19,426 bases of DNA. Source: Candidatus Thorarchaeota archaeon. Its GTDB lineage: Archaea; Asgardarchaeota; Thorarchaeia; Thorarchaeales; Thorarchaeaceae. Below, one piece after another: positions 7,781-11,177 of the stretch; position 1 is the first letter of the stretch, and every line of letters begins with the position of its first letter. Position numbers and translations under genes: made by a program. The notes below the pieces were generated by a model. It saw nothing but the letters and a program-made list of their open reading frames with translations. It had not been told where the DNA came from and searched no databases. The DNA is taken from contig PRDI01000121.1 in NCBI GenBank assembly GCA_003345595.1, positions 1 through 19,426 on the forward strand. Direction: 5' to 3'.

Positions 7781-9106
7781 TTAGTCCTGTGCAGCCATAG
7801 ACTCTCCATTTAACGTGCCATCCATCAAGGAGCCATAGGCTGTCATATCGAAATGCCCGTGGCCTGACAGATTGAAGAGAATTGATCTTTCTTCGCCTCT
7901 TTTCTTTGCCTCAAGGGCGAGGTCGATGACTGCCTTTATTGCGTGAGACGACTCAGGAGCTGGGACGATGCCTTCTGCTCTGGCGAAAAGGACCCCTGCA
8001 TTCAAGGCGTCGACTTGGTTATAGGCCAATGGTCTGACCCTGCCCTCCTGTATCAGTGCGCTTAGTGTTGGAGCCGAGCCGTGATATCGTAGCCCGCCTG
8101 CATGTATTTTCGGCGGAATGAAGTTCGCGCCGAGAGTGTACATTTTCAGTTTTGGTGTGAGTCCTGCTGTGTCCCCAAAGTCGTAGCGATACTCGCCGCG
8201 ACTGAGCTTGGGGCAGGCATCTGACTCGGCAGCGATGAACTCGGTGTCCTTGAATCTGGGGTCGGCGATGAAGGGATATGACAGACCCGCGAAGTTGCTG
8301 CCGCCACCAACACAGCCAACAATGTAGTCTGGTTTGGTGTCGATTAGATTCAGTTGCTGCTTTGCTTCTTGACCTATGACTGTCTGATGGAGTAAAACAT
8401 GGTTCAGGACAGATCCAAGAGTGTATTTCGTGTTCTGGCTGCCAAGTGCGTCTTCGAGAGCTTCGCTAATCGCGATTCCCAGAGACCCGGGGTGTCCTGG
8501 CTGTTCTCGATTGAGTCTTCTCCCAAACTCGGTGTTTTGCGAAGGGCTGGGAACGACTTTCGCTCCGTAGAGTCTCATTAGAGTTCCACGATATGCCTTC
8601 TGTTCATAGCTGACCCTTACCATGTATATCATAGCTTCGAGACCAAAGTGTGAACAGGCGAGGGCGACGGCGCTGCCCCATTGACCAGCACCTGTTTCTG
8701 TGGTGTATCGTTCCACTCCCTCTTTCATGGCATAGTAGCACTGCGCCAGCGCTGTGTTCGTCTTGTGGCTGCCGGTTGGCGAAACATCCTCTCTCTTGTA
8801 GTAGATTCTGGCTGGGGTCTTTAGCATCTCCTCGAGTCCGTACGCTCTCTGAATTGGGGTTGGTCTTCCAAAACGGATCATTGCCTCTCTCACTTCATCG
8901 GGGATTGGTACGGTCCTTTGTTGAGAGACCTCTTGTCGCACGCACTCTTCCGCGAATATTCTTGTCAGTGCTTCGGGATTCACGGGCTCGCCCGTCGTCG
9001 GGTCGATTGGGGGAGGAAGTGGGCTCCGCAGGTAGGGAACTATGTTCACGTAGCTCTTTGGTGTATCATCAGGATCTAGTGCGATTCTGATCTGTTGTCT
9101 TATCAT
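7781..9106 (-). CDS. trpB2: Tryptophan synthase beta chain, type 2 (TrpB2; PLP-dependent)
   Basis: SPTGSHKTN (PLP Lys), TETGAGQWG, HPGSLGIAISEA, LGSVLNHVLLHQT, GCVGGGSNF, IHAGGLRYHG, PAPESSHA, NLSGHG; RBS GTGAGGA (9120-9114). Confidence 0.97.
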   Translation of the reverse strand: MIRQQIRIALDPDDTPKSYVNIVPYLRSPLPPPIDPTTGEPVNPEALTRIFAEECVRQEVSQQRTVPIPDEVREAMIRFGRPTPIQRAYGLEEMLKTPARIYYKREDVSPTGSHKTNTALAQCYYAMKEGVERYTTETGAGQWGSAVALACSHFGLEAMIYMVRVSYEQKAYRGTLMRLYGAKVVPSPSQNTEFGRRLNREQPGHPGSLGIAISEALEDALGSQNTKYTLGSVLNHVLLHQTVIGQEAKQQLNLIDTKPDYIVGCVGGGSNFAGLSYPFIADPRFKDTEFIAAESDACPKLSRGEYRYDFGDTAGLTPKLKMYTLGANFIPPKIHAGGLRYHGSAPTLSALIQEGRVRPLAYNQVDALNAGVLFARAEGIVPAPESSHAIKAVIDLALEAKKRGEERSILFNLSGHGHFDMTAYGSLMDGTLNGESMAAQD

Positions 9107-9295
9107 CTATGATTCCTCACATTCATGTTTCCCGAGGACTGCGTGCGGTTTCCCATCTGCAGCATGTACTATGACATCGCCTTGGTCGAGTCTTCGTACG
9201 ACTGACTTGTGAGAGAACGACGCCGTGGAAGAATATCGCGCGAGGATGGTATCTACAAAACTAGCTGTAAGGGTCGCTTCAGACCCCTGCCCCAT
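9107..9295 (-). CDS. Possible 62-aa upstream ORF abutting trpB2 (TAG-ATG)
   Basis: TAG at 9109-9107 directly precedes the trpB2 ATG in the same frame; no RBS of its own; no recognisable domain. Confidence 0.3.
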   Translation of the reverse strand: MGQGSEATLTASFVDTILARYSSTASFSHKSVVRRLDQGDVIVHAADGKPHAVLGKHECEES

Positions 9296-9315
9296 TGGTA
9301 GGGACGCACGCTCAT
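9253..9315 (-). CDS. Putative Trp leader peptide MSVRPYQWGRGLKRPLQLVL
   Basis: ATG at 9315 lies 8 nt after a perfect GAGGTGA RBS (9330-9324), which is about 32 nt downstream of TTTATAA (9369-9363). It is the first ORF of the predicted trpB2 transcript; Trp at codon 8. Confidence 0.6.
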   Translation of the reverse strand: MSVRPYQWGRGLKRPLQLVL

Positions 9316-9362
9316 CGCGATTTTCACCTCAGGACTGGAGGCAGGCGTTCGTGGCGGCCATC

Positions 9363-9408
9363 TTATAAAGATTGCTCATAGCTGTACATCAATGTACACT
9401 TCTGTGCA
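9363..9408 (-). promoter_or_regulatory. trpB2 promoter (TTTATAA) with phased TRP-box-like sites TGTACA-N4-TGTACA-N4-TGTGCA
   Basis: tgtaca 9383-9388, tgtaca 9393-9398, tgtgca 9403-9408 and degenerate tgctca 9373-9378, all at 10-bp period. TGTACA is the TrpY TRP-box consensus. Confidence 0.75.
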
Positions 9409-9621
9409 TCTACTAGCTCACCCCAAGAGAGATTTCAACCCGAACCACAGCAGAAACGAAGTACCTGGAACATGGGTGCGGTGATGGTTTGTCAGAGATC
9501 ACCTGCGTTCGTTGACATGAGATCGATGCTGATGCAGTTGGGTGTGGCGGGAACTGCAGTCGTTGGCAGTGATTCAGCCGCTCAGAAACACCGGTCGATG
9601 ATGGCTGCGTACTAAGCAAGC

Positions 9622-9717: not shown

Positions 9718-10092
9718 GTGAGCGGTGGATCTGGTCCTGCAACAGAGGAATTTGAGAGATGGTCCACTGAGGTGAAGAAAGGTGCTGCGGCCCTCGCAAT
9801 CCTGGCAGTGTTGGAGGAAGGTCCTGCCTACGGGTACGAGATTGTCAAGCGCCTGAGCGACAAGGTGACATTCCTTCAGCTTGAACAGGGAACAGTATAT
9901 CCGTTGCTTCGTCGTCTCGAGAAGGAGCGGAAACTGTTGATCAGTGAATGGGACTATGCGGACCCGACGAAACCGAAGAAGTACTACCGCCTTGAGGACG
10001 AGGGCAAGAGAGCCCTCAAAATGATGACCGAAACATGGTCTGTACTAACGAATGAAATGAAAGAACTACTTAGGAGAGTTAACGCACAATGA
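9718..10092 (+). CDS. PadR-family transcriptional regulator
   Basis: 'KKGAAALAILAVLEEGPAYGYEIVKRL...EQGTVYPLLRRLEK...PKKYYRL..EG' is the canonical PadR signature; GGAGGCGA RBS before GTG. Confidence 0.93.
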   Translation: MSGGSGPATEEFERWSTEVKKGAAALAILAVLEEGPAYGYEIVKRLSDKVTFLQLEQGTVYPLLRRLEKERKLLISEWDYADPTKPKKYYRLEDEGKRALKMMTETWSVLTNEMKELLRRVNAQ

Positions 10093-11177
10093 GTGAAGAA
10101 CCACTGGAAATGATCGAGAAGTATCTCGAACGGGTTAGGATATACTTGCCCGTTGACAGTCAAGATACACTGACCGAGATCAGAACGCACTTGATTGAGG
10201 AGGCCCAGTCTTTGGGCCAAGGGAAGATAACCCGCGGCTCAGTGATGCTAGCCATCGAACGCTTCGGCGACCCGAAGGAAGCTGCGAACGCCTATGCTGG
10301 GACTGGCAAGAAGGTGGGCATCATACCGGCTGAGTACGTACTGCCTGCCGGCAGGATGGCGATGGCCCTTGTTGCTCTCGTGATCGCATTCGGTATCGGC
10401 GCTTACTTCGTGTGGGTTTCCTTGTCCTTGTGGGGCTTCCCGACTATCGAGAACTGGCCATTCAACATCCCTGTCATGATAGTGTTCTGGGTGGGGCTCG
10501 GCGTTCTCGTCATCGGAGTCCTGTCTTTCCTTGATAAGTACAAGGCACCAACTGAGAAGACTGTCCTTGAGGGAGTCCTAGGCGCTGGAAGCGGTGTCTT
10601 CACGCCCAAGTCCAGGACTGACGCAGCCGGCGACATAGTGTTTGGACTGGTCTTCGCAGTAATTCTCTTGCTGCCTCAGATACAGCTCTGCTTCATCCCC
10701 GCATTTCTACCAGTCGTGGGAGTCATGGCGTTTCTCATGGCGGTGGGCGCGGCCAAGGGCTATCTTTTCTTCAAGGCAGGAGAGAACAATGCGAATCTGC
10801 TGTTCGAAGCCGTCCTCTCAGCCGCATGGATTGTTGCGTGCATGGTGCTGGTTACCACCGGCTGGCCCATTGTCTATGTTTGGAACAATACGAACGGTGT
10901 ATGGTCGCTCTTCTATCTGCCCGACCTGTACGGTGACATTTCCTTCCTACCTCTCTTGTTTAATGGTGTCTGGACGTTCATAATCTTCATCGTCGCTGTT
11001 ACCAACTCGTGGCAGCTTGTGATCTCCGGGATGAAGATCCCTATGTACATGAAGGCTGGAAAGGGCTGGTGGTGGCAAGGGACTTGGGGGTCCGGACTCC
11101 ACTCAGGCTGGAAGAAGTGGTCAAGAAGACTGTTCGGCAGGCAGTCTGATGATTCTGCCCCGAAGCAGTCCTCTTAG
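10089..11177 (+). CDS. HAAS/DUF1700-like N-terminal domain membrane protein (PadR partner)
   Basis: 'IEKYLERVRIYLP...EIRTHL...AIERFGDPKEAANAY' helical N-domain followed by about 6 TM; ATGA overlap with padR. Confidence 0.8.
   Translation: MSEEPLEMIEKYLERVRIYLPVDSQDTLTEIRTHLIEEAQSLGQGKITRGSVMLAIERFGDPKEAANAYAGTGKKVGIIPAEYVLPAGRMAMALVALVIAFGIGAYFVWVSLSLWGFPTIENWPFNIPVMIVFWVGLGVLVIGVLSFLDKYKAPTEKTVLEGVLGAGSGVFTPKSRTDAAGDIVFGLVFAVILLLPQIQLCFIPAFLPVVGVMAFLMAVGAAKGYLFFKAGENNANLLFEAVLSAAWIVACMVLVTTGWPIVYVWNNTNGVWSLFYLPDLYGDISFLPLLFNGVWTFIIFIVAVTNSWQLVISGMKIPMYMKAGKGWWWQGTWGSGLHSGWKKWSRRLFGRQSDDSAPKQSS

Follow-up and report, generated by a model that had tools for sequence, protein, structure and literature searches.

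In the bacterial trpL attenuators (Escherichia coli/Salmonella; RF00513), a short open reading frame (ORF) preceded by a Shine-Dalgarno (SD) sequence lies upstream of a tryptophan-biosynthetic gene and within a conserved RNA structure, the cognate Trp codons stand 7-10 codons from its start, and the leader is combined with the operator of a Trp-responsive repressor, TrpR, at the promoter. The characterised archaeal control of tryptophan synthesis consists only of the DNA-binding regulators TrpY and Tar (PMC6737238), of which TrpY binds to TRP boxes in Methanothermobacter thermautotrophicus (PMC6737238), and our literature searches found leader-peptide sensors of tryptophan in bacteria only, with no archaeal example. 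The stretch of DNA analyzed here, hereafter the window, comprises 19,426 nucleotides from Candidatus Thorarchaeota archaeon (contig PRDI01000121.1 of assembly GCA_003345595.1, a genome here termed G000 and 83% complete) and carries trpB2, a gene coding for a stand-alone TrpB-like enzyme. Upstream of trpB2 lie two short frames that overlap each other, here termed uORF1 and uORF2. Coordinates refer to positions in the whole window, and both the leader and trpB2 are read on the minus strand. The analysis identifies the trpB2 leader as a structured and probably translated leader that is confined to one Thorarchaeota family, and comparison among its members makes it rather probable that tryptophan is sensed here, in some form, by the ribosome that reads the leader.

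The features listed above for trpL are all found again in the Thorarchaeota leader, with a candidate operator in place of the TrpR operator. The differences lie in the archaeal host, in the usual presence of one Trp codon instead of a tandem pair, in a single stem-loop where trpL has its 1:2, 2:3 and 3:4 alternatives, in the lack of a GC hairpin followed by a U-run terminator, and in the distance of about 190 nt to the regulated gene, which is occupied by the second, overlapping ORF. No Rfam family matches the window at gathering thresholds, nor the region 9080-9420 at E<=10, Trp_leader (RF00513) included. With the TrpY/TRP-box system of M. thermautotrophicus (PMC6737238) the locus shares TGTACA boxes that adjoin the promoter of a trp gene, as well as TrpY-family homologues in its relatives; no translated leader is known in that system, whereas the boxes described here accompany a leader with two ORFs.

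uORF1 (9253..9315) opens with ATG 9315 and runs for 20 codons, MSVRPYQWGRGLKRPLQLVL, to a TAG stop (9255-9253), with Trp as its eighth codon (TGG, 9294-9292) and a Shine-Dalgarno sequence GAGGTGA, read from the sequence, at 9324..9330. These elements, together with a TATA box and a 7-bp hairpin, had been picked out in a preliminary description of this DNA, and all of them lie on the minus strand just where that description had them. It had also named the lack of conservation of the Trp codon or the ORF in related genomes as grounds for abandoning its proposal of a leader peptide. trpB2 was located in 44 of 61 related genomes and the DNA upstream was read, and there ribosome-binding site, short ORF and Trp codon are all conserved. 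An ATG lying 12-36 nt upstream of the TGG, in frame with it and with the frame open up to it, occurs in 33/37 distinct leaders, as compared to 4 and 2 in the other two frames, and if GTG is admitted as a start codon the TGG frame is served in 37/37. Purine-rich, SD-like sequences are found 5-10 nt 5' of the uORF1 start in most genera, and the start codon itself varies only between ATG and GTG. The spacing between start and TGG amounts to 21, 24 or 27 nt, in every case a whole number of codons, while that between the RNA motif GAGYGTG, described below, and the TGG is 16-19 nt; the existence of three spacing classes hence indicates that the uORF1 frame is preserved independently of the RNA motif.

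The uORF1 homologues comprise 51 distinct DNA variants coding for 41 peptides of 13-29 residues. Trp is present in every one of these peptides, two or three times in 12 of them, and makes up 7.1% of their residues, as opposed to 1.3% in the long ORFs of the genome. The part of the peptide 3' of Trp shifts with compensatory substitutions in the RNA hairpin (GPxGP, APRGA, RPHGR, GRxRP), the C-terminal residues are variable and the stop codon follows the TGG at distances of 15 to 54 nt. Since both the peptide and the position of its stop vary, selection appears to act on the Trp codon and its frame and not on the peptide, which argues against an arrest peptide akin to TnaC; a TnaC-type peptide was rejected on account of this TGG-to-stop distance (15-54 nt) and of the lack of a conserved C-terminal Pro-stop.

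The leader is strictly linked to trpB2. Two relatives of the same genus are nearly unchanged from the TGTACA boxes to just past uORF1, but have diverged in the flanks and in the greater part of the spacer. Family-wide, at about 70% TrpB2 identity, the same arrangement is found at every locus with enough upstream DNA, loci with a GTG start included. The leader is represented by 50 distinct sequences, and R1, a 60-nt covariance model of its core, matches in 57 of the 86 family genomes and in 14 of the 16 genera, with a single match in G000; in one of the two genera without a leader (g4), trpB2 is absent as well in the three genomes searched. Among 125 genomes from 26 other Asgard families R1 yielded no match, and the exact core pattern gave 29 matches among 185,579 species genomes, of which those with taxon-bearing titles are all Thorarchaeota/Promethearchaeota and the rest are entitled "uncultured archaeon" or "archaeon". 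Where enough downstream DNA was available, trpB2 was found 134-217 nt after the heptamer CCAATGG, which contains the Trp codon, in 35/38 and subsequently in 50/50 leaders. Leader and gene also decay together: at one locus (L111, G018:C167:5500-10719, core at 8399-8458) the ATG has become ACG and the stop and boxes are degraded, and about 210 nt downstream there is a trpB2 remnant that spans residues 1-173 only, with 45% identity. The existence of a second copy of the leader before other genes was considered and rejected, for none was found in the genome, nor any second R1 match in those family genomes that have trpA.

The heptamer CCAATGG (9292..9298) is near-invariant, being present in 48/50 leaders, and holds both the Trp codon read in uORF1 and the ATG (9295-9293) with which uORF2 starts. 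The A of the uORF2 AUG immediately precedes the Trp codon, and its U and G are those with which the Trp codon begins (A-AUG-G). This arrangement provides a reason for the Gln codon before the TGG being always CAA, despite a genomic preference for CAG (13005 vs 5864), as the uORF2 start codon takes its A from the third position of CAA. The two leaders without the heptamer carry CCACTGG and CCACTGT instead and belong to one genome, G016, which has two trpB2 paralogues located 10 kb apart (C6:11482-12984, L018, and 22284-23800, L095), each with a leader of its own. In both of them the ATG of the heptamer has been lost and the -1 frame is still open, and two codons further on each contains a UUG overlapping a Trp codon. 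L018 retains the UGG in spite of the loss of AUG2, and L095, in which the first TGG has been lost, retains an in-frame Trp through the TGG two codons later.

uORF2 itself (9107..9295) consists of 62 codons and a TAG in the -1 frame with respect to uORF1, and in the window its stop abuts the start of trpB2, TAG being directly followed by ATG. The 146-nt gap that the preliminary description had taken for an untranslated spacer is occupied by this conserved, overlapping second ORF. The -1 frame is open in 50/50 leaders, with a mean of 0.3 stops between ATG2 and the trpB2 start, as compared to 3.2-3.3 in the other two frames (50 leaders). The uORF2 stop falls between -44 and +38 nt from the trpB2 start in 48/50 leaders, that is, in all but one lineage, and no more than 23 nt away from it in 42/50, the modal arrangement being +4 (ATGA overlap). 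From residue 17 to the end, identity among uORF2 products amounts to 30%, against 29% in a shuffled control, and the first 16 residues, which are semi-conserved (M-A-x-G-S-x-x-A/T-R-L-V), overlap the structured core of the leader. Two leaders of the same genus, L001 and L004, differ even in the frame in which the last part of uORF2 is read, and nevertheless both stop at the trpB2 start. A frame that is kept open without conservation of its peptide points to selection for translation up to the trpB2 start and not for a protein. TGG codons, moreover, are scarce in the uORF2 frame (0.61%; the other two frames have 1.25% and 2.17%) and absent from 40/50 uORF2 bodies, and TrpB2 contains a single Trp in 441 residues. 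The depletion of Trp in both uORF2 and TrpB2 suggests that translation up to the trpB2 start must proceed under Trp scarcity.

Both frames are superimposed on an RNA stem-loop, P1-P2-P3 (9222..9335), which encloses the uORF1 start, the Trp codon with ATG2, and the uORF1 stop. The 5' strand of its basal helix P1 is the GAGCGTG motif (9307..9313; family consensus GAGYGTG), which is itself SD-like, lies 9-11 nt 5' of the uORF2 start and pairs with CRCACRCUC-like 3' strands across the family. In the window the 3' strand of the stem-loop includes ACCAT (9250-9246) and CCTCGCGCGAT (9245-9235), and a pyrimidine-rich tract, ATATTCTTCC (9227..9236), comes directly 3' of it; a peak of T (0.41) and of pyrimidines (0.71) is seen family-wide at +64..+80 from CCAATGG. 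Sequestration of the uORF1 SD by this tract was considered as a further conserved helix and rejected, the partners of the SD being heterogeneous. The apical hairpin P3 (AGGGGUC-UGAAGC-GACCCUU, 7 bp, 9269..9288) starts exactly 5 nt after the UGG in all family members (ungapped alignment), with 90.8% of its cells paired and three pairs changed on both sides; GCGUCC/GGACGC in L012 and GGCUCC/GGAGCC in L011 are examples. Some nucleotides are conserved beyond what the helices account for, namely the CCA before AUGG, in which an invariant C occupies the wobble position of a codon that varies, as well as a GUYUAG strand after P3.

Taken alone, the 246-nt leader of the window folds no better than its shuffles (z -1.19), so that the single sequence proves nothing and the evidence for the stem-loop is comparative. 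In minimum free energy (MFE) predictions each leader by itself folds into one long stem-loop, in which the region of the uORF1 start pairs with a segment 3' of the apical hairpin; its mean z is -1.96 over 19 non-redundant leaders, all of them negative, and the remaining spacer to trpB2 gives no structure signal (mean z -0.24). Native combinations of 5' and 3' strands reach -23.7 kcal/mol, against -19.9 kcal/mol for strands swapped between lineages, and in 21/51 leaders the native partner is among the best-scoring tenth. In an ungapped subgroup of 13 sequences, a structure of 28 pairs is 92.9% paired, as opposed to 26-52% when the partner is slid. Across 40 distinct sequences, 18 of the 28 pairs have changed on both sides (138 cells vs 49 +/- 8 in shuffles), in an alignment that was model-fitted and thus leans towards the structure to which it was fitted. 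Comparison of 5' strands with shuffled 3' strands in RNAduplex yields only a weak signal for the individual sequences (mean z -1.1), and MAFFT with RNAalifold recovers P3 only. For the folded form, the predicted pairing probability is 0.79 for the UGG, 0.67 for the uORF1 start and 0.65 for the uORF1 SD.

Covariation of RNA helices had been named as a check in the preliminary description, but the structure that covaries is this one long stem-loop and not the alternative hairpins proposed there. Its GUCCC/GGGGC mini-hairpin is not conserved in the family: it is either restricted to the genus or, in L004, not in register. The long-range helix between 9311-9301 and 9154-9141 is conserved neither in L004 nor in the family, and the MFE structure uses a proximal partner instead; the two anti-RBS (ribosome-binding site) pairings fare no better, in L004 as across the family. 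When the footprint of a ribosome at the UGG, which had been supposed to switch the fold, is masked, the accessibility predicted for the trpB2 SD stays the same in 27/34 leaders (it rises in 3 and falls in 4). Given the conserved frame and the covarying RNA over the ORF, a translated Trp-codon leader that controls trpB2 is thus the best reading, while the particular switch put forward for it finds no support.

For a biosynthetic gene, low tryptophan should turn expression on, a direction that control by termination would provide. If uORF2 acts positively, through coupling or protection of the leader, low tryptophan must raise entry into uORF2; a hand-over at a stalled ribosome is suggested by the exact A-AUG-G overlap, by the hairpin placed 5 nt downstream and by an open -1 frame with few Trp codons. 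It seems reasonable to postulate that, when charged tRNA-Trp is scarce, a ribosome translating uORF1 would pause with the UGG in its A site and, by sitting on the 5' strand and on the hairpin's first arm, would hold the stem-loop open. Translation would then pass to the -1 frame, either through re-initiation at the overlapping AUG by the small subunit, whether stalled or rescued, or through a -1 shift aided by the hairpin 5 nt downstream, and uORF2 would bring ribosomes to the trpB2 start, with translational coupling and shielding of the 190-nt leader from termination or decay as the result. When tryptophan is plentiful, on the other hand, uORF1 would be read to its stop and the ribosome would depart, the stem-loop would shut over both start regions and trpB2 output would drop. 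Within ribosome-read sensing, which we have called rather probable, this hand-over to uORF2 is put forward tentatively; classical premature transcription termination at the stem-loop, as a different output, is doubtful, and outputs of other kinds are less likely still. In its strictest form the hand-over model would have the uORF2 start lie exactly under the ribosome stalled at the hungry Trp codon, with that ribosome being converted in place to the -1 frame, a proposal that from the sequences at hand must be deemed rather unlikely.

Several described systems resemble parts of this scheme. In the translational attenuation leaders of cat and erm genes, the leader ORF also lies in the 5' strand of a stem-loop that is opened by a ribosome within it; here, in contrast, AUG2 lies under the stalled ribosome and not in the 3' strand, and the signal would be an amino acid and not an antibiotic. 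Termination-reinitiation at ATGA overlaps provides a parallel for an upstream ORF that stops on the start of the regulated gene. Programmed -1 frameshifting is similar in that an open -1 frame runs past the 0-frame stop and in the invariant position of the hairpin, exactly 5 nt after the A-site codon, but no X XXY YYZ slippery heptamer is present, the site being C CAA UGG (C CAC UGG in G016). The fact that the -1 frame begins with a conserved AUG also points to initiation rather than to frameshifting. In eukaryotes, the control of GCN4 and ATF4 involves two uORFs upstream of an amino-acid-related gene, the second of about 60 codons and often overlapping the main start out of frame. The likeness of the present leader, with two upstream ORFs, the second of about 60 codons and often overlapping the main start, before an amino-acid-related gene, is one of analogy only: its uORFs overlap each other, its initiation signals are of the SD type and no delayed re-initiation of the eIF2 type is implied.

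A number of observations weigh against ribosome-read sensing as put forward here. Most leaders contain just one Trp codon, the uORF1 SD is weak in one genus (g6), and for the invariance of the TGG there is another explanation in its overlapping the uORF2 start and pairing in helix P2. All counts given above, furthermore, overstate independence, since the sequences are phylogenetically related. With regard to termination, a terminator scan found no intrinsic terminator in the leader, which has no U-run terminator, and there is no conserved alternative helix of the antiterminator type among the leaders. Oligo-T is not enriched after genes in G000, runs of T5+ occurring after 2.6% of 1710 long ORFs as compared to 1.1% of random windows; where genes converge (169 pairs), T4+ occurs in 9.5% and A4+ in 8.6%. 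The absence of such enrichment after stops suggests that intrinsic terminators with U-tracts do not mark gene ends in this genome. As for the hand-over, a ribosome stalled at the UGG also covers the uORF2 AUG, so that an extra step is needed, C-CAA-UGG is no canonical slippery heptamer, and in one genus (g10) uORF2 overlaps trpB2 by 119 nt, which fits poorly with simple coupling.

The upstream half of the locus bears on the foremost alternative. The TATA box TTTATAA (9363..9369), from which transcription is inferred to start at about 9340, belongs to a motif, YTTATAWR, that is kept at a fixed distance from the SD across the family. Upstream of it lie four phased hexamers with a 10-bp period (9373..9408), which read TGCACA (9408-9403), TGTACA (9398-9393), TGTACA (9388-9383) and TGAGCA (9378-9373), resemble TRP boxes and constitute a candidate TrpY operator. 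All family leaders have two to four such TGTACA-like boxes with the same period and in the same place 5' of the TATA box (same position in L003-L025), and they match the TRP boxes to which TrpY binds in Methanothermobacter. Full-length homologues of TrpY_fam (NF053754) are found in 24/24 other family genomes, with scores of 152-169 bits that fall just below the 180-bit cut-off, and they are present even in those family genera that have no trpB2; no TrpY homologue was found in G000, the assembly of which is 83% complete. A candidate TrpY-type repressor acting at the TGTACA boxes probably adds transcriptional control to that exerted by the leader.

If that repressor were responsible for the whole tryptophan response, the leader could be constitutive: the stem-loop and uORF2 would set the basal translation of trpB2 by coupling or by protection of the mRNA, uORF1 would be a helper that opens the structure, and the UGG would be kept for the sake of the uORF2 start and of P2 pairing. 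The boxes and the TrpY_fam homologues in 24/24 relatives are in keeping with this explanation, as are the single Trp codon of most leaders, the predicted pairing of the UGG in P2 (0.79) and the retention of CAA against the genomic preference, for which AUG2 accounts. It does not explain, however, why the uORF1 start should be held in the frame that reads the UGG over three spacing classes, why L018 should keep the UGG without AUG2 and L095 a Trp codon two codons on, why 12/41 peptides should have extra Trp codons, or why Trp codons should be depleted in uORF2 and TrpB2. W-rich frames that end upstream of trpB2 in three other Asgard families also speak against it, and on balance we hold a constitutive leader to be unlikely.

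Less likely than this is an RNA element that binds a protein or a ligand, acting in the manner of a riboswitch or recognised by a Trp-activated RNA-binding protein, with the stem-loop, its bulged CCA and its GUYUAG strand as the sensor and the ORFs as by-products. Such an element would account for the conservation of CCA and GUYUAG that has no explanation in the helices, and for a hairpin that covaries while the encoded peptide changes (GPxGP, APRGA, RPHGR). An RNA-only model, on the other hand, needs neither an in-frame ATG or GTG with an SD nor a 62-codon frame open to the trpB2 start in 50/50 leaders, and no Rfam match is found even at E<=10. In UGGN the last base is variable and changes together with an internal partner (CG, GU, AU, UA), which argues against pairing with the 3' end of a tRNA as in T-boxes; a T-box riboswitch was rejected for this covariation with an internal NCCA and for the lack of an Rfam match. 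TRAP-like (G/U)AG repeats were also rejected as a candidate, there being only two or three such triplets in the leader. Finally, that uORF2 encodes a functional small protein, for instance a partner of TrpB2, and that the leader is a two-gene operon is very improbable, because the constant presence of an ORF of about 62 codons with a semi-conserved N-terminus and operon-like stop/start overlaps is set against the lack of amino-acid conservation past residue 16 (30% vs 29% shuffled), the different frames in which same-genus relatives read its 3' part, the absence of a Pfam match for uORF2 and the coincidence of its conserved N-terminus with a covarying RNA hairpin.

The regulated gene, trpB2 (7781..9106), codes for a pyridoxal phosphate (PLP) enzyme of 441 aa that matches Pfam PALP and the NCBIfam models NF009057 (669 bits) and TIGR01415 (641 bits). 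Its true start is ATG 9106, where the N-termini of its homologues begin, whereas upstream in-frame stops differ among relatives. That TrpB2 extends further at its N-terminus, or that the in-frame TAG 9109-9107 is read through or recoded, was rejected on the same grounds, as homologues begin at the ATG and the upstream stops vary in both position and frame. The trpB2 SD, GAGGA (9114..9118), sits within the 3' end of uORF2, and SD-like sequences precede trpB2 in most family loci. Neither trpA (PF00290) nor trpC (PF00218) was found in G000, and trpA is present in only 6-7 of the 86 family genomes, indicating that most members have trpB2 as their sole trp gene. Judging from the known TrpB2 reaction, the enzyme is probably one of indole salvage here. 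The trpB2 gene of M. thermautotrophicus is a TrpY target. Divergent from the trpB2 leader lies a gene pair (9718-11177, plus strand) composed of a regulator of the PadR family and, with a 4-nt overlap, a gene for a protein of 362 aa with an N-terminal HAAS domain.

Different arrangements upstream of trpB2 were observed in other Asgard families. In one of them, a TrpY-family gene scoring above the cut-off (L028:2864-3400, plus strand, 197.5 bits) is divergent from trpB2, and a homologous gene is found in L029; the short trpY-trpB2 intergenic regions of these two loci contain TGCACA/TGTACA boxes and a TATA-like box, and no leader of the R1 type. Some frames upstream of trpB2 end in clusters of Trp, namely FWAWRWLTWP, RWCICWASSWHW and GWPWRGPWQ, each directly followed by a stop; the frame ends 68-75 nt upstream of trpB2 in L031 and L117, at -183 in L119 and at -118 in L118. 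L031 has TATA-like boxes between the W-rich frame and trpB2, so that the membership of this frame in the trpB2 transcript is uncertain. In two other Asgard families (L026 and L027) an ORF of 122-131 codons, with a C-terminal part that resembles a helix-turn-helix, overlaps the trpB2 start, and in L026 it is closely preceded by an ORF of 8 codons (MMGDSIWV) with a perfect GGAGGTGA.

The comparative support for the trpB2 leader is as strong as sequence alone allows, resting on some 50 independent-looking variants, a frame that has been kept, helices that covary, the strict association with trpB2 and the decay of leader and gene together. The leader also points to a recurrent gap in annotation, as uORF1 falls below the default ORF length cut-off and neither it nor the R1 core matches any Rfam family. 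The design departs from that of bacterial attenuators in that two overlapping frames share a Trp codon and a start codon and no terminator is present. Were the frame hand-over true, it would constitute an amino-acid sensor that relies on nothing but the choice of reading frame, and one from the archaeal lineage that is closest to eukaryotes. The leader makes it possible to test whether archaea sense amino acids via the ribosome, and what control of the uORF type may have looked like before eukaryotes.

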